Shown here one piece after another: positions 37,454 through 58,439 of a DNA stretch of 64,000 nucleotides. The notes beneath the pieces were generated by a model that did no database searches, was not told the DNA's origin, and was given only the letters and a program-made list of their open reading frames with translations. This stretch comes from Escherichia coli (lineage in GTDB: Bacteria; Pseudomonadota; Gammaproteobacteria; Enterobacterales; Enterobacteriaceae): assembly GCF_016903815.1 (NCBI RefSeq), contig NZ_CP069973.1. One strand, given 5' to 3'. The number at the start of each line of letters is the position of its first letter. Position 1 is the stretch's first letter. Both the position numbers and the translations under genes were made by a program.

Positions 37454-40400
37454 TTAGTCTCCAGGATTTCCGGGGCGGTTCAGCTGTTCATTAAAACGTT
37501 GTCCAGGCTGATCATAAAGTGCGCGTAATGTCTCCGCGGATGGCCGCGGTTGCATTTGCTGCATGCAGGGTTTCTGGTGGTAATCAAAATACTGTGGCAG
37601 ATGCTGGATCTCTGCTTTGTTTTCAATTACCCGTTGAAGGGCTCTTTGACGCAACTCTCTTGATGATTTGTCACGGATCGATTCCAATTGTAGCTGGCTG
37701 CCGCTACTAATTCGCTTACGAGCAGCATCAAAATCAAAGCGAATAGCCAATAGACTCGGCGTAGTCTCACTTAGCTGCAATTCCCCTAATTGCACTGATT
37801 CACGCTTATCTTTAATATAAACAATGATCTTATCATCAAGTTCAAAGCTGAGGTCAGCACCGGATTCCGTAGTATATGGGTAGAGTAAGCAACCACTCGG
37901 TGATTCCTGAAAGTCAGTAGAGTCGATGTTGACTATATCTCGTAGGTCTACTTCTGTATCAGATAATGCCTGCCATAACTCAATTGGGCTTGACTCACTA
38001 CTATCGAAGTCATCTTCATCCATCTCTTGATTAGGATTAGCTCGCTCAATGATGGCATCAATTACTGGCTCGAGGTTAAACAGTAGTTCAATAAAAGTAT
38101 TACGCTGATTAAGTGAGCCACGTTGTAATGAAAGTTGAGTATTAATTTTAGCCTGGGAATATTTACCAGCCTTTATACTTTCTTCGATCGATAATCCTTT
38201 TTCATACACTATTCTATTAATAGTGCGATTATCAGGATCTAAGTCTATCAATAGCCGCTCTCCTAGGCCAGTGATGTAACAACGCAATTCATGCGCAAAG
38301 CGTGGGTTAGATGACCAGTTACATTGAAAATAATAGATCCCATCATTTTGTTCTAGAAGCTTCACTTCTTGCGGCCAATCATCTGTGCCCCAGCAAACAG
38401 GAATTACCTTATCCTGTGACTCAGACGCCACAACTTGATTAATCTCAGCTTGTTCCGGTGCTCGAATTGACTGCAGCAAAGGATCGAGCGCGATAGGTAT
38501 ACCGTCAACGGTTTGTTTTGCGCGTTCTAGCTCAGCCTGCACCAGTACTGGCATATCTTCACTAAATAGCTCCTCCACCATACGATATACTGCAAAGCAA
38601 TCTCGCCCAAAAGCATCAGTACTTTCGGGATTCTCTGGCTGGTAGCGATTATCTGCAGTTAATTCATCACTGAATTCAAGCAATCCAATCAGAGTAATTA
38701 CTGTCTGCTCCCCGACTTGTACCAGCAGTTTCTCTGGGCAAAGATCTCCATGAGGTAACTGCTTTTCATGAAAAGCATGAATGGTGTTGATCAACTTTTC
38801 CGCAATTGTAAAACGTTGGGATTGTACTAACACGTTCTCAGCAATAAACTGTGACCACGGTAGGCCATCCACATACTCGCTCACTACATACAAGCCGCCT
38901 TGTCCTAATAGTCCATAGGACTGCACCTTAGGAGTTGGCAGATTTATATGCGTAAGCTTATCGATCCGTTGCTTAAAAGCGTGGATACGGCGGTTAACAC
39001 CAGGTTGTTGAGGGGTCAAAATAACACCATCCCACAATTTTACCTGCAGAGCTTTCCCACCTTGTTCACAGTGATAACTGATGCTGCCAGTCGTAGCAAT
39101 AGCAGCAAGAGCAGAGTAAACCATAGACAACTGTTCAGGAAGTGGAGGAAACTCAATTAACACACCAACGCTGTTCATCCCTTCGCGAAAGAATTTGTTT
39201 TGCTTTAATTCTTGATAAATCTGGTTAGCTTCATCAAATTCTTGGCTATGTTCCTTAGTAGCTGCATTAAACTCATTGAGCATTATGTCCGCACGTGGAA
39301 AGCGTTTACTTGGCTCAAGGTTAAGAGCTTGCTCAAACCAGCTATTTAGAATACCGCTAAAAGGATCAGTTAATGGAGCTCTCCATTCAGGCATCTGTCC
39401 AGGAGTCAGTAATGATTCACCTGCAAAACAAATACGATAAGCAATTACAGCCAACATGAATACATCTAGGCGATAGGGCTCAACTGCTTCTTCAAAAGCA
39501 TCTTCGGGCAAAATATATGGAGCACTTTGCAATGTCGGACGCAATGACTCTAGGCTATTATGTCCCTCCAGTGAGGCTGCGCCAAAGCCAGTAACGACAA
39601 TGCTCTTCTGATCCCCTGCGTACCATAGATTGTGCGGGTCAATATCACAATGACTGATACCCAAGCTATGTAATTCCGAGAATGGAGCTAATAATGCACG
39701 AACGCGATCAATACGCTCAGATTTACTCCATCCGTCAGCTTCGCTATCTAGAATCTCATCTAATCGGCTAAAACTACGGCGTAACTCATACAGCTCACGG
39801 GCATCATCAGTTATATCCTCCTCGGATAGTTCCCTTACAGCACGCAACATATAATCCTGCATAGTTGCGCTGCCATGACGAACTAGGCGACCGACTCGAG
39901 TCTCACGCAGAGCTATCTCAGCCCACAATGTTTGCATTGCGTTTGCTACACCCAAGGCATCAAAGTTCCACTGCCGTAGCAGACCTCTGTGTTGACTATT
40001 GTCTTTGTGGGTAGCCCTGAATTCGTTGTAGACCATGTGAGGGTGACTAAAGAATGGCTTATCGTTCGCAAGATAACCGCTTTCTTTTAGTGGCAAAGGC
40101 CTGACTTTTGGTCCTTCAAAGAAGGACTTAATTATAGGTAATGCCTCATCAGAATTTGGTCGAGGCTTTCCCCCTTCAAAAAGATGAAAAAAGTTAGTGT
40201 GTTGCACCAGCTTTTCGTAATTTTTTGGGTTACCTATAGTCAAGAATTCATCACGGGTATGAACATAGCGCCTCTCACTTAATGGCAAGTTTTCAGGACC
40301 AGCTGTGCCACACAGCACTACATGAGCCTCAACATGCAAAAAGTAACCCAGCTTACGAGATAACTCTTCCTGCAACAAATCTTTTAGTCGCAGTGCATGC

Positions 40401-40678
40401 TCACGCTTGATCTGATAGGGACTTTTGCCTCGTGACTTACCATTTTGCAGCCACTTCCCCCCTTCAAATGTGATGTTACCATTCCACTCTTTAAGCTCGA
40501 CTAATAGCAGACGGTCAGCAGTAATAATTAGCATATCGATTTCCATCGACCCTTGGCTATCAGTAACAACTAAGCCAGCATAGCCAAACCAACTATCTGG
40601 TAACTGCTTAACCATCATATCAACTGTTTTGGTTTCGCTGCGGTGCAGGCCAGCACCACCTACTATCTGATACTTCAC
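37454..40678 (-). CDS. 1074-aa protein with N-terminal NERD-like nuclease domain and two protein-kinase-like regions; 3' end runs into IS3
   Basis: NERD-like motif [21 protein letters not shown]; kinase catalytic-loop-like motifs [10 protein letters not shown] and [10 protein letters not shown]; last about 9 codons and stop lie inside the IS3 inverted repeat. Confidence 0.7.
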
Positions 40679-48635: not shown

Positions 48636-50179
48636 GCTGATGACTCCTGAAAGTTAATGACGTTTTAAGTGCTGTAAACGAATTAATGCTTTCGCTCATA
48701 ATCAGATCTAAAACGGTAATAACTTACAGACGGTATTTATCAGGCATGCTGTAACAGAATGGATACGTCGGTTATTAACGACACACAGCGTTGTGCTGAA
48801 GGGTATGAGTTATCTGATGGCATTGTCTATAGAGATGAGATAAACGAGGTGCGAAGAAAATACAGATTCAATACAACACAGTGAAATACAGAAAAATACG
48901 AACTGTAATCCCGCTGCCAGGCGGTTAGGAAACATATTACAACTATAAGCTCATGGTTTGTAAATTTGCTCTCAGTGAGTCTGAAAAAACGTTTATAAGG
49001 TCACCACAATAAACTCACACGCGCTTATTCAATCTGTTCTCCAGGATATGAACGTTAACGACACACGATAGCATAAGACAACATACAATGGATGAATAAT
49101 TTTCACCCAGTACCTTAAACAATACAACCGGCAACAAATATAATCAGAAATTCACTCTGTTAATTCTGTTGTTTATCCTGCGCTGTTAAACATGACGGAA
49201 CCATGGATACCTTATCAAAGAGTAAGCATTCAGTTAATCAGTAATGACAGAGAAATTGATGTTCACCAGAATAGTTAAAACACTTCAGATAAACAATCAT
49301 TGTTAAGCAAATACGGTTCATAATGGATAAATTAGAATCAATTACTGTTTTACTGAAGATGAGAATAGATGAATATCAACAATAGCGTAGTAGAGAATAA
49401 CTTACCTGAACATCATATGAGTTACAGTAGTTATGATTGAGGGATGGAGTGAATACGATAACAAGAGTAATACTAATGGAATGTGTAAAGATTGAGAGTG
49501 AGTGAAGACAGGAAGTAAATAACAATAGAGATTGTATGAAAAAGGGAGTGAATAAAGAATATATAAAGAATAAATATAATTATAGTAATAAACCTAAATT
49601 AAAATCATCCTTGTTTGATGAGTAAAAATAATTCTAGAAAATGAATCTGTCTGAAAACTCTTTCTCAGAGATTAACCGATCAGATGCTCAACGGACTCAA
49701 TAAATTGGCTGAGTCAGGTTACCTCATCCACACTCTATTTGTTTCTAGAAGGATCTACCATTTTGTTCATCTACCGGAACACATCAATTTAGTAACTCGA
49801 TAATATCGGTTATGTAGATATTTATCGTTGCTACCAATGCCTAGATTATTATTCTCCAAGTATTTTCTTGACTTACAGGCTAATTTTGAAACAAATGTCA
49901 TGCTATTTTAGGAAAAGAACCTATGCAAAAGTCTGCTATGAGCGAGGAGCAGATATTCATCTGGTATACAAAGACAATATCGCTTAAGTCATCAGTGCTG
50001 CCACTTTAACCACTAGCTCTGCTCTTTTTGGACTTTTGAGCTAAAAATTAAATCTGACAGTGTGATAAGGTGCAAGTTTCTGAAAATACGCCAGTTGTTT
50101 TACACTCAAAAGCCCCCATTACTATCTGATGTTAATGGCGCAGCAGTTATCTTTCAGATTATTAAGGGGAAACAAGAGT

Positions 50180-50884
50180 ATGGCAAGATGTACAGCTCCT
50201 GTACGTGGACATAGCTCAGCAGCAGCTGCTGCTGCCTGTCCCGCATGTCGTAATCGCAGTGGTTATCGCCGCAGTAGCTACAGTTATGATAGTTACCCTT
50301 CTTACTCATCAGGCTCTAGCGGTGGCGGAAGTTATGGAGGCAGTAGCGGTGGTTCCAGCAGCAGCGCGAAGCCACGTTGGTCAAAATCAGGGTCTTCCGT
50401 TTCTTACACAACAGCCCAAGTACAATCACTCACACCAATTCGACAAGCGGTAGAGAAACTTGCCATTGAGCAACCTGATCTGCGTGATGTCTTTCTTTGC
50501 CATGCTTGGGATGACCGACAAGGTATTGCCAAAGAGTTACACGATTTGCTCGAAGCGGCAGGTGTCAAAGTATGGTTCAGCGAAAAGGATCTTGCCCTTG
50601 GTGTTCCGATGATGCGTGCCATTGATAAAGGATTAGCAAACTCTCGAATCGGCTTGGTTTTAGTGACACCTGCATTGTTAAACCGTCTTCCTAAAGAAGG
50701 CGTTGCTGATAAAGAACTTTCCGCCTTACTGGCAGGCAACCAACTCGTTCCCATCGTGCATAACACGACGTATGAAGCTCTCCGTAATGTCAGTCCTTTG
50801 CTTGCATCCCGAAGCGGCCTCGACACGGGAGAAGATACATTGGCAGTTGTTGCAACAAAAATTGCAGAGCTGATCACTGTTTAG
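50180..50884 (+). CDS. TIR-domain protein with Ser/Gly/Tyr-rich low-complexity N-terminus
   Basis: RBS aagggga then ATG; TIR-like motifs DVFLCHAWDD, VWFSEKDLALG, SRIGLVLVTPALL. Confidence 0.7.
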   Translation: MARCTAPVRGHSSAAAAAACPACRNRSGYRRSSYSYDSYPSYSSGSSGGGSYGGSSGGSSSSAKPRWSKSGSSVSYTTAQVQSLTPIRQAVEKLAIEQPDLRDVFLCHAWDDRQGIAKELHDLLEAAGVKVWFSEKDLALGVPMMRAIDKGLANSRIGLVLVTPALLNRLPKEGVADKELSALLAGNQLVPIVHNTTYEALRNVSPLLASRSGLDTGEDTLAVVATKIAELITV

Positions 50885-51307
50885 TTTATCCAAGCCACCG
50901 TTAAATATTTCCAGCTCATGAATCTGGTCTGCTATTGCAGGCCAGATATCAGTCAATACTGAAAGGTTTGACCTGCTCCCCGTTGATTAACATAGACTGA
51001 TATAGCAACTTCCGCTTTTGGCACAAAGCAGACCATGAGAAGATAGACGCTATAACATTTGAGTCCTACCAATCGATCTGTTCATTTCCATAAATGGCAG
51101 TAAATGCAAATAACCAGAACAGCCAGGCGCTTTTCGACTTATGGTCGATGTTGCAAAGAGTGAGGAGTGGAAAGCAAGCGTGCGAACGAAAGTAGATGGC
51201 AATCCATTGCATTACTTCAGGACGACTTTTCAGAAAGCGAGCTAAGGGCGTCAGCCAACGCCCTTACCGTGGCATAAGCTCAGGCACCGGATGCCGTTTT
51301 ACAGGGC

Positions 51308-52039
51308 TCACCTGCCATCCAGTAAACGCCCCGGCCCACGACTGCAACCATAATTACGTTGACCAGAACCGTCATGCTGCTTCGTCTCATACTTCACGAG
51401 ATAACAGGCTCTCTCCATGGCTTTCTGCATCGCTTCCACATCACCACGCTTGACCCAGAGCACAGCGGATCCACCAGATTTTTTGTCAGAAGCTTTCCGG
51501 GTATCAGAACATCCACCCGACAAAGGCGTATCATCGGAAGAAGGGCGAGCATCAGATGATGCCGGTTTACGGAAAGGCGTCCGCCTGGAAAAATGAACCA
51601 GTCCATTACCCTGCCAGGGTTCAAGATGCAGAGCGCTACACCATGCCAGCTTGATCAGCGTCGCCAGCGAAGAAGGAACGGTGAAATCCCCTAGCGAGCA
51701 CCAGGTATCTTTGTTGAGCAGTAATATCACGTGATAATGTTTCCTGCCTTTTTCCTTGCCAAACTCCCGACACCAGAAATAACGCAGAGTGGTTGCACGC
51801 ACACGCTTGTTGGCACGTCGTTTATGTCGCTGGTAAGCCTGAATTTTTGCTTTCAGGGATTCGAAAAAACGAGAAATCACCGCTGAATCCGAATCGGGAT
51901 CCATGATGGTGACAGGCATATACTCAGGGAAACGTAAATCCATCCGGATTAACGAGACGACACGGTGTTGCGCCAGGGCACTGTTGAGAATACTTTCAAA
52001 ACGGGATAACCAGTAAGCATTGTGTATTGGTTGATTCAT
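51308..52039 (-). CDS. inovirus Gp2-like (YagK/YfjJ family) protein
   Basis: VSLIRMDLRFPEY ... HYHVILLLNKD motifs. Confidence 0.65.
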   Translation of the reverse strand: MNQPIHNAYWLSRFESILNSALAQHRVVSLIRMDLRFPEYMPVTIMDPDSDSAVISRFFESLKAKIQAYQRHKRRANKRVRATTLRYFWCREFGKEKGRKHYHVILLLNKDTWCSLGDFTVPSSLATLIKLAWCSALHLEPWQGNGLVHFSRRTPFRKPASSDARPSSDDTPLSGGCSDTRKASDKKSGGSAVLWVKRGDVEAMQKAMERACYLVKYETKQHDGSGQRNYGCSRGPGRLLDGR

Positions 52040-52883
52040 GATGAGAGATCTCCGTTGATTTGGATTGACTTCACATCATTAATCACCGCGGTAAAACTTT
52101 ACGGCATCCCGCCATTGAGCAACGCCAATGGCTCCTGATTAAAACAGAATGAATCCCCCACGAAGAAAAAATAAACCTACACGCAGAGTAAAACACACAA
52201 CAACGGCATAAATGGTTTTTAAAAACTACAAAGCCTGAAGGGAAACGGATCCACAGAACGTGCAAACAAAACACCAAAAACGCAATCAGAACGCTTTCTG
52301 CTGCTGTGAATCAACAACAATACCAAAACCTACAGCTTAACCACAAAACTCAATCACAGAGCCGAATAGCGTGTTTAAAACCTGTTTACAGATAACCCTG
52401 CCACAAGAACAAAGTTCACCAATATCAGAATCGATTTTCTCATCCTGAAAATGTTACGTTTCACTACACAGCATAAAAACGATTAACTATTGATAACGTA
52501 AACCTCATCTGAATCAAAACACCAGAACCAATCATCACGCTTTTCCTGAAAAGAGCCTTGCGCTGAGAAAAAACACCAGGGTCAGTTAATCATCTCATCA
52601 ATCTCATCGTTACAAAAACATCCATAAAACCATTTAACAAAATCATCGTAAGCACACAGTAAATCACGCCAGGTTATCTCAGCCAAATTTTCGTTTTACA
52701 TAAAGACACTTGTCTCAGGTTAACGACTAAAAACACAAAAACTCAGAAAAGGTTAAACGTAACTTCAGAAAAATAGAATATCATATTGATTGCTTAAACA
52801 GGAAAGATTGTTTTGTAGTAGCATTAAGCTGATTTTAGTTAACGTAAAAACAGGACTGACAGGTTTACTAAACTGGATGTGTA

Positions 52884-53100
52884 TCAGACAAAGCAATGTG
52901 TATAACAATACTTAATGAAAACACTTGTAGAATTGTTTATGAAAATACGTGTATGTCTGGTAAAACACTTAGTAGAAAATACGTGTATAACACTTACTGA
53001 AATGCTTAGTAAAAATACTTAGTAAAATATGTGTAGAATTATCTATTTAAAAAGATATGTATATAACACTTAATAAAAACATGTGTATATAGTATCATAC
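52884..53100. repeat. iteron-like array of degenerate direct repeats in AT-rich intergenic DNA
   Basis: Recurring GTGTATAACA(A/C)T..A.TGAAAA and TGTAGAATT.T.TAT..AAAA units, 2-3 copies each. Confidence 0.4.
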
Positions 53101-53730
53101 CGACATTCTCAACATCTTCAGACTTCCATACATACTGGGTGTTGATTTCTCACTTTTACAGCCAGCATGGAGTTTTCTGTCCTAAAAACAGAGCAGATTT
53201 ACTCTGGAATTATTTTTCTACCCCCGTATTTCAGGCCCCAGAAAAGACAATCCGAAGCAAACCGTTTGTCAGCCTCCATATCATCTTTTACCCCCGGAAA
53301 GTGATCGCGTTTACAACCAGAATGACAGCCATACTGATTATGTCGTCTCCCGGCCCCCTTCACATATAACATGCATGTCTGTCATTGCTTACTGCTCCAC
53401 ATGACCGGATTTCACATACAGGATGCACATTCAGTGTTTTTATCGCTACTATAACAGACAGATTACTGTCGTCTTTACTCTTCAGATTGTTAATCTGACC
53501 ACAAGAACAGCCGAACGGCAAAACGCCCTCCACAAGGGGCACATGAACCATAGTTGATAGCATGTTTTTCCTAATCAAGGAATAGTTCAGGAATATTTTA
53601 TTGCATTAATAACTGGCGAATAATCGTTCTGTGAACACAAAATGCTTTTATTTGTAAATTTTATTGCATTGCACTCGTTTTATTGATATGGGGTTTAATA
53701 ACAGATAACCCGGAAAGAAGGAGAAAACAG

Positions 53731-54522
53731 ATGACATTACGGATTAACGATCAGGGGCGAGATAAACAGAATCAATTTTTATCGAAAAATGGAGAAAATC
53801 TGAATTCGTTAAAATCGCGTCATGTGCAGGATAGGCATTTACCTGAATGGCTTAAGGATAAAGTTGCAGCATTCTGGTTTTGTCTGGTGATAAAGGATAT
53901 GAAAGTGTCAGGGAGCAGTTACTATGAACTTACCATGCAACTTCCCACTTCTGAAGAATCTGTTTGCATCAGTAAGCTGTCATCCTCAACCCATGAGATT
54001 CGGCTGGAGATCATCAGGCGATGGATTGATAGTGTAGCGCAGATAGAAACGGAAGCTTTTACTAAAAATCTCGTTGATGCCATCTATAAAAACTGGAAGG
54101 AAATCGGGAACAAAAACCAGGCCACATGGCTTAAAAAAAATCCGGAACAACTCGAGTGGGCATGGAAATATATTAACATTCGTATTCCCGAGTCACATTT
54201 AACCTGGTTTTGCCCCGTCAATAACGAAGAGAAACGCATTGCCATCTTAGCATTGCTTAAAATACTGTATCCCGGAGATATACCATGCCAGTACAACGAC
54301 AAAGAGTTTCATGTCGGGATCTGCGCTGAAGAACATTTTTACAGAAGAATGCACGACGCTTTCAGAAAACAGTTTATCGACGGGAAAAAAGATAAACGGG
54401 TACAAATTAACGTAAAGATATCACCGTCCGCAAAAAGCGCTCTGGACAGACTGACCAGAGCGAGGAAAACAACACAGCAGGCTATTCTGGAACAACTGAT
54501 TCTGAACGGTAGACTGGATTAA
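53731..54522 (+). CDS. hypothetical protein with C-terminal RHH/HTH-like tail
   Basis: RBS aaggag then ATG; tail ...SAKSALDRLTRARKTTQQAILEQLIL; contains an A8 homopolymer at 54133-54140. Confidence 0.5.
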   Translation: MTLRINDQGRDKQNQFLSKNGENLNSLKSRHVQDRHLPEWLKDKVAAFWFCLVIKDMKVSGSSYYELTMQLPTSEESVCISKLSSSTHEIRLEIIRRWIDSVAQIETEAFTKNLVDAIYKNWKEIGNKNQATWLKKNPEQLEWAWKYINIRIPESHLTWFCPVNNEEKRIAILALLKILYPGDIPCQYNDKEFHVGICAEEHFYRRMHDAFRKQFIDGKKDKRVQINVKISPSAKSALDRLTRARKTTQQAILEQLILNGRLD

Positions 54523-55505
54523 CTTTCACTACTTCCACTCCTGGCAGTTTTCCTCTTTTTGTAGTGTCTCCCGGCTGCAGGCATCAGGTACTTTTCCGTC
54601 ATTTCGTTGCAGAACTCTTCAATGTAGTTAATCAGCTTCTGGTGTGCTTTCACCTTTTCTTCCCCGGGGGACGCTTTCAGATAAATGTCCTCCTTTTCCA
54701 CAAGTGTATTTATAAACTCTCCCGGACATCCCTGGTTATAAAGCAACGTGAAAAACAACACATTCCCCAGTCTCTCCAGTAACTGCGATTTAACCCTGTA
54801 TTGTTGTTTGCTGAGGATTGATTGTTTTATAAAGCTTAGTCTTGTTAAAAGTTGTTCAAATCCCGGTTCCAGTTTAAAAACAGATTTTAATACCAGGGAC
54901 TGATACTCCTGATAAAAAAGTTCAAACGTCGGGGATGCAGACTGACGAACAGATTTGGCTACAACCCATGGACTAAATCCCATGATTGGGATTTCCTTCG
55001 CTCCCTCCAGCGCACTCAGAGGTAGTCCAGCAATCCATGCGTCCAGCTTAGCCGAATCAATATCCCCGCTCAAAACCTCATACAAACTGCCCGTGAACGG
55101 TTGAGTCGGTTTTTTTGTTGTTTTACCTTCTGATTGCCTGAATCCATCCACTTTTCTCCGGATATTACGCGGAATCAGCATAAAAGGCGGGACATTAAGT
55201 GATAAACGTTTACCCGTCATACGATACCAGTGGCCCACCTCAACCTTAATCCGTGTATCTGGCCTTGTATCTGGCCTTGTATCTGGCCTTAGCTCAAGTG
55301 CTATTATGTTAAGCAGGTACAGATAACGCACCGTATAACAGTCAAAATGTTTCTCCGGATCAAACGGCTCTGATCGTTCTCTGCACACAAGTCCGCTGCG
55401 CTTCAGTATTCGCTGGGTATCTTTCCAGGCCTTACTCTGAAGAATGGTGGTAACTCTGGCTTTATTAGCAATCTCACGCAGCGCATCACTTTGTTGTGCC
55501 GTCAT
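54519..55505 (-). CDS. hypothetical protein containing (RPDT)x3 tandem repeat
   Basis: ORF with RBS ggaggg before MTAQQSD; convergent with, and 4-nt overlapping, the previous gene. Confidence 0.5.
   Translation of the reverse strand: MTAQQSDALREIANKARVTTILQSKAWKDTQRILKRSGLVCRERSEPFDPEKHFDCYTVRYLYLLNIIALELRPDTRPDTRPDTRIKVEVGHWYRMTGKRLSLNVPPFMLIPRNIRRKVDGFRQSEGKTTKKPTQPFTGSLYEVLSGDIDSAKLDAWIAGLPLSALEGAKEIPIMGFSPWVVAKSVRQSASPTFELFYQEYQSLVLKSVFKLEPGFEQLLTRLSFIKQSILSKQQYRVKSQLLERLGNVLFFTLLYNQGCPGEFINTLVEKEDIYLKASPGEEKVKAHQKLINYIEEFCNEMTEKYLMPAAGRHYKKRKTARSGSSES
55253..55292. repeat. 12-bp in-frame tandem repeat (tggccttgtatc, about 3 units)
   Basis: Seen directly; encodes RPDTRPDTRPDT on the minus strand. 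Confidence 0.6.
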
Positions 55506-55611
55506 CTCTTCCCTCCACACTTTGTCACTCCAGATTTTTTCACGTCCATATTACCTGAATGATAAACCGGATTAGTGTGATCCGGTTCAGCGAAATCAAC
55601 AGGATACCGGT

Positions 55612-56496
55612 ATGTCATTCAGCCATTCTTCCCTCTCTGCACAAGTGAAATCATATCTGACGTTTCTTCCTGAAGAAATTCGCCAGAAAATCCTTGAACA
55701 TCTCCACGGTGTTATTCATTACGAGCCCGTGATTGGCATTATGGGTAAATCCGGCACAGGCAAAAGCAGCCTGTGTAATGCCATTTTTCAGTCCCGTATC
55801 TGCGCCACGCATCCCCTGAACGGCTGCACCCGCCAGGCTCATCGTCTTACCCTGCAGCTCGGTGAACGCAGAATGACGCTGGTCGATCTGCCCGGCATTG
55901 GTGAAACACCGCAGCATGATCAGGAATACCGGACACTTTATCGTCAGCTGCTACCGGAACTGGATCTGATTATCTGGATCCTACGGGCTGATGAACGTGC
56001 GTATGCTGCCGATATTGCCATGCATCAGTTTTTACTGAATGAAGGTGCAGATCCCTCGCGTTTTCTGTTTGTTCTCAGCCATGCCGATCGCGTGTTTCCT
56101 GCTGAAGAATGGAACGACACAGAAAAATGCCCGTCCCGTCAGCAGGCGCTCTCACTGGCGACGGTGACAGCCCGGGTGGCAACCCTGTTCCCTTCATCAT
56201 TTCCGGTACTCTCCGTTGCTGCACCTGTCGGCTGGAACCTTCCGGCGTTTGTGTCGCTGATGATCCACGCACTGCCACCACAGGCAACCAGCGCGGTGTA
56301 TTCACATATCCGGGGAGAAAACCGCTCTGAACAGGCCCAGAAACACGCACAACAGACTTTTGGTGACGCCATCGGGAAAAGCTTTGACGCTGCCGTTGTC
56401 CGGTTCAGTTTTCCGGCCTGGATGTTACAGCTTCTCCGTAAAGCCCGGGACCGCATTATCCACCTGCTGGTCACACTGTGGGATCGTCTGTTCTGA
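55612..56496 (+). CDS. YeeP/YkfA/YfjP-family GTPase
   Basis: P-loop GIMGKSGTGKSS; CP4-type backbone position. Confidence 0.8.
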   Translation: MSFSHSSLSAQVKSYLTFLPEEIRQKILEHLHGVIHYEPVIGIMGKSGTGKSSLCNAIFQSRICATHPLNGCTRQAHRLTLQLGERRMTLVDLPGIGETPQHDQEYRTLYRQLLPELDLIIWILRADERAYAADIAMHQFLLNEGADPSRFLFVLSHADRVFPAEEWNDTEKCPSRQQALSLATVTARVATLFPSSFPVLSVAAPVGWNLPAFVSLMIHALPPQATSAVYSHIRGENRSEQAQKHAQQTFGDAIGKSFDAAVVRFSFPAWMLQLLRKARDRIIHLLVTLWDRLF

Positions 56497-56614
56497 GCGC
56501 CCCGGAGTCCCCCGTGGCAACCGTATACCTTTACACGACAACGGATTACGGTAACCACTGCCGTATACCGTCTGTCATTATCAATAACACGCTCTTTAAT
56601 TTCAGAGGTCAGTC

Positions 56615-57292
56615 ATGAATACCAGAATTCTTTTTCCCCTGCTGTTCACTGTGGCATCCTTCTCCGCCTCCGCCGGCAACTGGGCTGTCAAAAACGGCTG
56701 GTGTCAGACCATGACGGAAGATGGTCAGGCACTGGTAATGCTGAAAAATGGCACGATTGGTATTACCGGCCTGATGCAGGAATGCCCGAATGGCGTACAG
56801 ACGCTCCTGGGCAGCCGTATCAGTATTAACGGTAACCTGATCCCCACATCACAAATGTGTAATCAGCAGACGGGATTCAGGGCTGTTGAGGTGGAAGTCG
56901 GACAGGCGCCGGAAATGGTCAAAAAAGCCGTTCACTCCATAGCAGAGCGTGATGTGTCCGTTTTACAGGCATTTGGTGTACGAATGGAATTCACCCGCGG
57001 TGATATGCTGAAGGTCTGTCCGAAATTTGTCACATCACTTGCCGGTTTTTCCCCGAAACAGACACCCGCCATTAATAAAGATTCCGTCCTGCAGGCTGCC
57101 CGGCAGGCATACGCCCGGGAATATGACGAGGAAACAACAGAAACCGCTGATTTTGGCTCTTACGAAGTAAAAGGCAATAAGGTTGAGTTTGAAGTGTTCA
57201 ATCCTGAAGACCGTGCGTACGACAAAGTGACCGTCACGGTTGGTGCTGACGGTAATGCCACCGGTGCCAGCGTTGAATTTATCGGAAAATAG
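56615..57292 (+). CDS. hypothetical secreted protein
   Basis: Signal peptide [20 protein letters not shown]. Confidence 0.55.
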
Positions 57293-57297
57293 CCGGT

Positions 57298-57531
57298 ATG
57301 TCGGACTGTCACCCTGTTTTATTGCCCGAAGGCCCTTTCTCACGCGAACAGGCGGTTGCCGTCACAACAGCTTACCGCAATGTGCTTATTGAAGATGACC
57401 AGGGAACGCATTTCCGGCTGGTTATCCGTAATGCTGAAGGTCAGTTGCGCTGGCGATACTGGAATTTTGAACCTGATGCCGGAAAACAGCTAAATCCGCA
57501 TCTCGCCAGTGAGGGAATTCTCAGGCAATAA
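57298..57531 (+). CDS. hypothetical small protein
   Basis: 77-aa ORF only. Confidence 0.4.
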
Positions 57532-57620
57532 ACGTCTTCATTTCATCCATCAGGCCGCGTCTTCTCCGGGAGACGCGGCCTTTTCATTTATACCGCTAAC
57601 TCATTCATAAGGAGCAAAGT

Positions 57621-58439
57621 ATGCAATTAGCCAGTCGTTTTGGTCATGTAAATCAGATCCGTCGGGAGCGCCCACTGACACGCGAAGAACTGATGTACCA
57701 CGTCCCGAGTATTTTTGGAGAAGACCGGCACACCTCCCGCAGTGAACGGTATGCGTACATTCCCACCATCACCGTCCTGGAAAATCTGCAGCGGGAAGGC
57801 TTTCAGCCGTTCTTCGCCTGCCAGACCCGTGTGCGCGACCAGAGCCGTCGGGAATATACCAAACACATGCTGCGTCTGCGGCGGAGCGGACAGATAACCG
57901 GCCAGCATGTGCCTGAAATTATTCTGCTCAACTCCCATGACGGTTCATCCAGCTACCAGATGTTACCCGGATATTTTCGTGCCATCTGCACCAATGGCCT
58001 GGTCTGCGGTCAGTCGCTGGGAGAAGTCCGGGTGCCACACCGGGGAAACGTGGTGGACAGGGTGATTGAAGGTGCTTACGAAGTGGTGGGCGTTTTTGAC
58101 CGGATTGAGGAAAAGCGTGATGCCATGCAGTCGCTGCTCTTACCGCCACCGGCACGTCAGGCACTGGCTCAGGCGGCACTGACTTACCGTTATGGTGACG
58201 AACATCAGCCCGTCACCACTGCCGACATTCTGACACCACGACGCCGGGAGGATTACGGTAAGGACCTGTGGAGTGCTTATCAGACCATCCAGGAGAATAT
58301 GCTGAAAGGCGGGATTTCCGGCCGCAGTGCAAAAGGAAAACGTATCCATACCCGGGCCATTCACAACATCGACACCGACATTAAGCTCAATCGCGCATTG
58401 TGGGTGATGGCGGAAACGCTGCTGGAGAACCTGCGCTGA
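57621..58439 (+). CDS. DUF932-family protein (YfjQ/YafZ-like)
   Basis: Translation and CP4-type backbone position. Confidence 0.65.
   Translation: MQLASRFGHVNQIRRERPLTREELMYHVPSIFGEDRHTSRSERYAYIPTITVLENLQREGFQPFFACQTRVRDQSRREYTKHMLRLRRSGQITGQHVPEIILLNSHDGSSSYQMLPGYFRAICTNGLVCGQSLGEVRVPHRGNVVDRVIEGAYEVVGVFDRIEEKRDAMQSLLLPPPARQALAQAALTYRYGDEHQPVTTADILTPRRREDYGKDLWSAYQTIQENMLKGGISGRSAKGKRIHTRAIHNIDTDIKLNRALWVMAETLLENLR

Follow-up and report, generated by a model that had tools for sequence, protein, structure and literature searches.

A convergent pair of orphan genes as a putative control or specificity module of Enterobacterales genomic islands

What is the function of two unnamed genes that converge tail to tail between conserved genes of a chromosomal island? 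The question is raised by positions 53,731 to 55,505 of a 64,000-nucleotide stretch of Escherichia coli DNA (contig NZ_CP069973.1, RefSeq assembly GCF_016903815.1; the whole stretch is referred to as the window). A previous reading of the sequence alone had described the pair as variable cargo of a CP4-type hotspot. The two genes, here named A and B, are the following:

53731-54522, plus strand: gene A, 263 residues, pI 9.3 (open reading frame list and ribosome-binding site; RefSeq coding sequence WP_000175256.1)
54519-55505, minus strand: gene B, 328 residues, pI 9.6 (open reading frame list and ribosome-binding site; RefSeq coding sequence WP_029396404.1)
54519-54522: palindromic TTAA in which the stop codons of A and B overlap (read from the sequence)

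A and B are two orphan protein families that form a widespread and previously unstudied module. We tentatively read this module as a cognate DNA-binder/partner switch that would control island genes or island replication.

The pair and its place in the island

Gene A starts with an ATG at 53731, preceded by AAGGAG-N7, and encodes 263 residues plus a stop codon; gene B starts with an ATG at 55505, preceded by GGAGGG, and encodes 328 residues plus a stop codon. The open reading frame list and the raw sequence confirm the convergent arrangement with a 4-nt overlap that the sequence-only reading had described. The reading frames themselves were also correctly located, yet the lengths given for them, 264 and 329 residues, included the stop codon. 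Both coding sequences are annotated with the same bounds, as hypothetical proteins, in the RefSeq annotation of E. coli strain 222, which is 100% identical across a 2-kb query spanning the pair. The 12 E. coli loci with the pair, CFT073 among them, all have the 4-nt overlap, as does the metagenomic locus L008, and the junction varies in other genera from a 26-nt overlap to a 121-nt gap. A promoter and terminator scan, with overall site counts no higher than in shuffled sequence, returned no terminator-like site inside the pair.

The pairing and the position are conserved. Homologues of A and B are convergent neighbours in 16 of 16 island loci examined, taken from Escherichia, Citrobacter, Hafnia, Lelliottia, Serratia and metagenomes, and B adjoins a YeeP-type GTPase gene in 14 of them, being displaced in two. 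This conserved neighbour is, in the window:

55612-56496, plus strand: YeeP/YfjP-type GTPase gene, divergent from B (open reading frame, annotation)

In E. coli islands with the pair, it is flanked by an inovirus-Gp2-family gene and, at the opposite end, by genes for the GTPase, DUF905, DUF932, anti-restriction, RadC and CbtA; uropathogenic E. coli CFT073 carries A and B in this context. The order in the loci of other genera is the GTPase gene divergent from B, B convergent with an A-family protein, and then AlpA and YagK/YfjJ genes. Four of these A-family partners, left out when the hidden Markov model of the family was built, still score 3e-34 to 5e-64 against it. Identity across genera is 27-34% for A, 31-38% for B, 51-70% for the GTPase and 66-75% for DUF932. 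These values indicate that A and B diverge alongside the island backbone, only faster.

The module is also restricted to islands. Of 5426 complete E. coli genomes, 62 have the whole pair and 741 (~14%) have DNA of the B N-terminus, always in the same island context where this was examined. B is absent from 50,697 phage records, and its occurrence on plasmids amounts to 2 in 72,556.

Some E. coli islands do not have the pair (L005 6762-7892, L006 6752-7975 and L007 6753-7976), and their slot holds a single protein of 376 or 407 residues. These proteins are remote homologues of B, with hhalign probabilities of 97.9% and 95.6% (E=5e-13 and 1e-8). They have an extra N-terminal C-x2-C...C-x2-H segment and no A partner, and the 407-residue protein returned no match in Pfam. 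Given that the slot holds homologues of both A and B in all 16 loci of the lineage, and a remote homologue of B in islands lacking the pair, its content is best read as a conserved island-backbone module, and not as swapped-in variable cargo. The cargo assignment made from the sequence is hence abandoned: across at least five genera the same two genes are present in 16 of 16 loci, and it is the allele that varies rather than the gene content. The more general claim behind it, that this interval carries variable cargo in CP4-type elements, holds for K-12 CP4-57, which has abpAB and rnlAB between yfjJ and yfjP, but does not hold for the island lineage studied here. The case also serves as an annotation correction, as orphan genes between conserved island genes are easily mistaken for defence cargo.

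Two orphan proteins and their exchange

Protein A consists of a Trp-rich, mostly helical N-domain (about residues 1-215) with six conserved tryptophans, and a C-terminus (about residues 219-263) in which a VQINVKIS strand and two helices can be read from the sequence. The C-terminus is probably a CopG/CopB-like ribbon-helix-helix (RHH) DNA-binding domain, and we call it probable because several weak signals all point the same way. Pfam RHH_1 matches residues 226-259 with a sub-threshold E=0.065 (0.02 for the best family member), PF10723 matches the A family with E=1e-3, and NCBIfam PRK13702 (RepA/CopB) matches type II relatives of A with E=7e-5 and the A of the window with 0.057. When the C-terminal profile was compared with 177,635 PDB sequences, the top three matches were CopG, twice, and pRN1 ORF56, each with E about 0.1. 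All RHH scores are under the family cut-offs, with PRK13702 giving A proteins 13-23 bits against a cut-off of 87; a Pfam search over every A-family member returned weak RHH signals only, and a PDB profile search with full-length A returned only noise. The AlphaFold model of A presents helices at 232-245 and 249-258 (predicted local distance difference test score, pLDDT, of 75-80) and does not model the strand at 224-230, where the alternating hydrophobic pattern of VQINVKI is visible in the sequence. Some homologues of A are proteins of 284 residues, and NCBI names the type II A a 'replication regulatory RepB family protein'; the A of the window is 25% identical to a full-length 'RepB family' homologue over 255 residues (E=3e-25).

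Protein B is mostly helical, with a conserved N-terminal two-thirds, an exchangeable C-terminal third and a basic tail at its end. Its motifs are SKAW..TQ..LKRSG, IVP..IRRK..F.Q, GSLY and LE.LG.ALFF.LLY, and the residues W27, Q31, P112, K118, L141, Y142, E200 and F252 are invariant in alignment A4; no catalytic signature is recognisable among them. Searches of Pfam (with 22 members), NCBIfam, PADLOC and PDB profiles returned no family for B, and PHROGs nothing beyond noise (E=0.35). When 1.84 billion representative proteins were scanned in full by HMMER with the B profile, 49 matches were obtained, of which ~17 are full-length relatives at 22-31% identity; their named cluster members belong to Citrobacter, Hafnia, Serratia, Lelliottia and Enterobacter, apart from one in a metagenome bin with the label Acinetobacter sp.

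Word-indexed homology searches for A and B returned Escherichia proteins only, all of them unnamed, and NCBIfam and PHROGs gave noise for both window proteins. AlphaFold2 models were built from shallow alignments of 21 and 7 sequences, without the distant homologues, and are poor (pLDDT 45 and 52); Foldseek of these models against the PDB found nothing below E=2. K-12 YfjH (318 residues) was considered as a homologue of A or B and rejected, at an hhalign probability of 0.1%. No published study of A or B was found by protein accession, gene name or Pfam name. The first impressions that neither protein belongs to a recognised family and that A has an RHH-like tail are therefore borne out, the former by PADLOC, NCBIfam, PHROGs and Pfam, and the latter by the weak but concordant Pfam, NCBIfam and PDB-profile signals.

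The two proteins vary together. Within E. coli, residues 1-160 of B are 69-93% identical across types, while residues 216-328 form two deeply separated types, with about 36% identity between them, which co-vary with the RHH of A (r=0.96) and with its N-domain (r=0.86). Islands with identical GTPase genes can have entirely different cassettes, as in L017 versus L020 and L022, a comparison that includes CFT073. Given these identical GTPase genes beside different cassettes, the unit of exchange in E. coli is all of A together with the C-terminal third of B, and one of its breakpoints lies within B. In blastn searches for the cassette types of co-resident islands, partial type II matches are mixed in, at up to 4 places per genome.

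Both proteins also evolve fast. Nonsynonymous codon differences outnumber synonymous ones about 2-5 times in A and B, versus a ratio of 0.5-1 for the GTPase, and the ratio of the corresponding rates (dN/dS) is 0.33-0.55 for A and B, being below 1 in 11 of 12 comparisons. The B homologues L003 4704-5666 and L004 4501-5463 differ by 23 nonsynonymous codons and 1 synonymous codon, and the GTPase genes beside them by 20 and 21, respectively. The ratio of 23:1 is suggestive of positive selection on B in this single lineage comparison.

The repeats noticed in the sequence, which had been proposed as sites of slipped-strand variation, are both present where they had been placed, according to the sequence and Tandem Repeats Finder:

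54133-54140, plus strand: A8 homopolymer in gene A, encoding the Lys-Lys-Asn of a W-L-K-K-N motif that is kept in the family
55254-55290, minus strand: in-frame 12-bp tandem repeat in a loop of B (x3.1, 100% matches), encoding RPDTRPDTRPDT (RPDT x3)

Of the 53 complete E. coli genomes with the A8 segment, 25 were sampled, and every one of these keeps the 141-nt span, with no change in A8 length. Three RPDT copies are found in 50 genomes, at a match of at least 99% over the 301-nt repeat region (of the 741 genomes with B). Two copies are assigned to about six genomes, which match at 95-99%; the one inspected is 12 nt shorter. One copy is the probable state of ~686 genomes whose alleles are more diverged, at 80-90% DNA identity, since all protein representatives of these alleles that were aligned have one. 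A second in-frame repeat of the B family, RQS, occurs once in the window (residues 123-125), twice in L003 and five times in L019 2622-3611 (E. coli ACN002). Since RPDT and RQS, which both lie in loops, change by whole codons, in multiples of 3 nt, the loop is altered and the gene is not switched, so that the variation is to be read as a loop-length polymorphism rather than as on/off switching. The comparison of copy number among strains that had been called for thus yields three, two or one RPDT copies among alleles, and the proposal of slipped-strand variation stands in part: RPDT copy number does vary, but A8 is constant in the 25 sampled genomes, and with frame-preserving RPDT and RQS the locus does not qualify as a phase-variable (contingency) locus.

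Competing explanations and the flanking DNA

The tentative reading of A and B as a DNA-binder/partner switch would work as follows. In one lineage of tRNA-integrated Enterobacterales islands, with the backbone AlpA / Gp2-YfjJ / YeeP-type GTPase / DUF932 / KlcA / RadC / CbtA, the pair would be a module for control or specificity that evolves fast. A dimer of A would bind island DNA through its C-terminal RHH, making A the DNA-targeting subunit. The conserved N-terminal two-thirds of B would act on a conserved target of the island, and its exchangeable C-terminal third would dock onto the N-domain of the cognate A. The A:B balance would then set the expression of the divergent operon (GTPase, DUF932, anti-restriction, RadC and CbtA), of the Gp2-type replication initiator, or of both, as a repressor/partner switch to which tail-to-tail transcription with no terminator in between might add mutual interference. 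The module is positioned at the divergent promoter of the GTPase-to-CbtA operon and 1.7 kb from the gene of the Gp2-type replication initiator. The B-only variants with a Cys/His-rich N-terminal extension would fit a B that depends on a DNA-targeting component, be it A or a fused segment, and, together with the block-wise exchange of cassettes, they would be in keeping with type-specific regulation as in a phage immunity region.

Repeats are present in the DNA on both sides of the pair:

53595-53670, plus strand: 13-nt exact direct repeat ATTTTATTGCATT, two copies 63 nt apart, 60-135 nt upstream of A (repeat search)
55506-55611: divergent promoter region between B and the GTPase gene, with a 15-bp direct repeat (x2.9) at 55509-55552 (Tandem Repeats Finder)

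The ATTTTATTGCATT pair is a candidate operator. The TTATTGCA pair recurs upstream of the type II A genes of L003 and L004 and not in L002, and TTGCA is enriched upstream of A in E. coli loci and not in distant loci. As an operator of A, TTATTGCA / TTGCA was rejected and is kept as a lead only, being absent in several distant loci and uncorrelated with RHH type. The region between B and the GTPase gene also contains a perfect 8-bp inverted repeat, AACCGGAT-N7-ATCCGGTT, at 55565-55587, and the 64-nt GTPase promoter piece (55536-55600) is found in 1826 of 5426 E. coli genomes.

Several observations weigh against the switch. Each RHH match is individually below significance; the AlphaFold models of A and B are both poor, so that fold searches are uninformative; and the occurrence of TTATTGCA / TTGCA upstream of A differs from locus to locus. 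The co-variation of A with the C-terminus of B could be mere physical linkage, given that the two segments abut on the DNA. Fast evolution and the 23:1 comparison would fit an arms-race (defence) gene equally well, and the equivalent interval of K-12 CP4-57 does hold defence systems, abpAB and rnlAB.

In a broader form, the pair could be an unrecognised two-protein specificity switch, akin to a phage immunity region, that keeps a widespread class of Enterobacterales pathogenicity and defence islands silent or activates their excision, their replication or their anti-restriction 'leading-region' operon, or else a new island-borne defence system missed by the catalogues; we consider this possible, although doubtful.

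The defence alternative, in which A and B would be an anti-phage or anti-plasmid system or a toxin-antitoxin-like pair, with B as an effector with a polymorphic C-terminus and A as its neutraliser and autoregulator through the RHH, has several points in common with the data. RHH domains are typical of type II antitoxins; the variable C-terminus of B, co-varying with A, resembles polymorphic toxin/immunity cassettes; A and B evolve far faster than the GTPase; the same island holds other defence and toxin-antitoxin genes (ThsB-like, Mokosh and CbtA/YeeU); and the CP4-57 interval holds defence systems. However, when A, B and six relatives were searched against PADLOC-DB 2.0.0 at E up to 1, zero families were found for these eight proteins, although ThsB (2.7e-128) and MkoA (2e-188) of the same island were recognised as positive controls. 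A and B are convergent in all 16 loci and not co-transcribed, as the genes of a type II toxin-antitoxin system would be, and the invariant W, Q, P, K, L, Y, E and F of B give no recognisable catalytic motif. The fixed backbone position across genera, the absence from phages and the near absence from plasmids are unlike mobile defence systems, and remote homologues of B with no A partner are hard to square with a toxin that needs A. These results suggest that a defence or toxin-antitoxin role is unlikely.

The island does have what is likely to be true defence cargo, on the other side of the Gp2 gene from A and B. The plus-strand gene at 50180-50884 encodes a TIR-domain protein of 234 residues with a full-length match to PADLOC ThsB1, and sits between two Gp2/YagK-YfjJ-family genes; its match suggests that this ThsB-like gene is such cargo. 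The minus-strand gene at 37454-40678 encodes the N-terminal 1074 residues of Mokosh MkoA (model positions 2-1030 of 1607), being truncated or disrupted in the window, and strain 222 (L001 574-7079) has an intact MkoA plus MkoB. The GTPase of the window has a weak match to PADLOC LeoBC (E=1.6e-6, with no individual stretch passing), which probably reflects a shared GTPase fold only.

A 1.7-kb gene-free stretch (52040-53730) separates the Gp2-family gene from gene A. Its first ~1.4 kb is 74-90% conserved in every island of the lineage, those without A included, and it presents a strong strand asymmetry at 52150-52750, where the plus strand is A/C-rich. At 52890-53100, about a dozen degenerate units of 12-14 nt, with the forms AAAATACGTGTAT and AAAACACTTAGTA, make up an iteron-like array rich in AT (28% GC). 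A reading of this array as DnaA boxes was rejected, with one exact box in the array and six in the window versus 6.35 expected. Rfam returned no credible RNA in 49000-58000, the sole match being PhotoRC-I at 24 bits versus a gathering threshold of 45. The stretch may serve as a long leader, encode a non-coding RNA or act as a single-strand origin. It is interrupted in L006 by an inserted ISEcp1-blaCTX-M-24 unit.

This stretch enters into the alternative of a replication-control, partition or mobilisation module, in which A would be a CopB/RepB-like regulator or an RHH accessory protein of a relaxosome or centromere, and B a new protein that processes DNA or binds origins, acting with the Gp2-type rolling-circle initiator on the conserved non-coding DNA. 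The RHH of A is indeed closest to plasmid copy-control repressors (PRK13702, PF10723 and CopG), a Gp2/YfjJ-family initiator gene is nearby, and 1.4 kb of conserved gene-free DNA, with its AT-rich iteron-like array and strong strand asymmetry, lies between that gene and A. In addition, the basic protein B has an IRRK motif and Tyr142 among its invariant residues, and the downstream operon resembles a plasmid leading region (anti-restriction, RadC and DUF932). A raised copy number of an integrase and a Gp2-family gene is reported for E. coli Nissle in mice (bioRxiv 10.1101/364505), which would also agree with replication. Yet the non-coding stretch and its array are equally conserved in islands without A, and thus not specific to A; DnaA boxes are not enriched; and B matches no Rep, relaxase/Mob or Par family in Pfam (22 members), NCBIfam, PHROGs or the PDB profile search. 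We therefore regard a dedicated replication, partition or mobilisation role as improbable.

Finally, homologues at 22-38% identity with the same arrangement in other genera, and the dN/dS of 0.33-0.55, indicate that A and B are real genes. That they are decaying, functionless remnants, as a fairly high dN/dS and the lack of a known domain in either protein might suggest, is effectively refuted by the identity and arrangement kept across genera, besides both genes being intact in every locus examined and the dN/dS being below 1 in 11 of 12 comparisons, and has next to no weight.

If the broader form of the switch is true, the cassettes of A plus the B C-terminus would set compatibility types, through which more than one island could be kept in the same cell. 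These are CP4-like pathogenicity islands of the pheV/pheU type; they are present in a large share of E. coli, with genes for capsule, virulence, resistance and phage defence. The two-gene module, conserved yet hypervariable, is known here from ~14% of complete E. coli genomes and at least four further genera, and, placed at the divergent promoter of the conserved operon, it is a concrete, testable candidate for the missing control element of the islands.

Comparison with known systems

In comparison with the AbpAB/RnlAB cargo of K-12 CP4-57, the pair occupies the same interval, from a Gp2/YfjJ-family gene to a YfjP-type GTPase gene, but has no homology to that cargo. CP4-57 is also of a distant lineage: its YfjP is 35% identical to the GTPase of the window, and its yfjJ is turned the other way with respect to the GTPase gene.

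Type II toxin-antitoxin systems and polymorphic toxin/immunity pairs share with A and B an RHH protein beside a partner with a co-varying variable C-terminus. They differ in that A and B are convergent and the RHH of A is C-terminal rather than N-terminal, besides the lack of a toxin domain in A or B, the remote homologues of B with no A, and the absence of a PADLOC match.

CopG, CopB (RepA2) and the PF10723 RepB-RCR_reg repressors are the best matches of A, although weak ones, through the strand-helix-helix of its last ~45 residues. These plasmid copy-control repressors have 45-90 residues and consist of the RHH alone, whereas A adds a Trp-rich N-domain of ~215 residues with no known relative, is a chromosomal-island gene and is always paired with B.

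The immunity regions of temperate phages and satellites differ in that A and B are unrelated in sequence to CI, Cro, Apl, Ant and the like, and in that their genes are tail to tail rather than face to face. The likeness is one of organisation: the modules of different islands are homologous but highly diverged, they are exchanged as a block between near-identical backbones with a breakpoint inside a gene, and the module has a probable DNA-binding protein next to a divergent promoter region.

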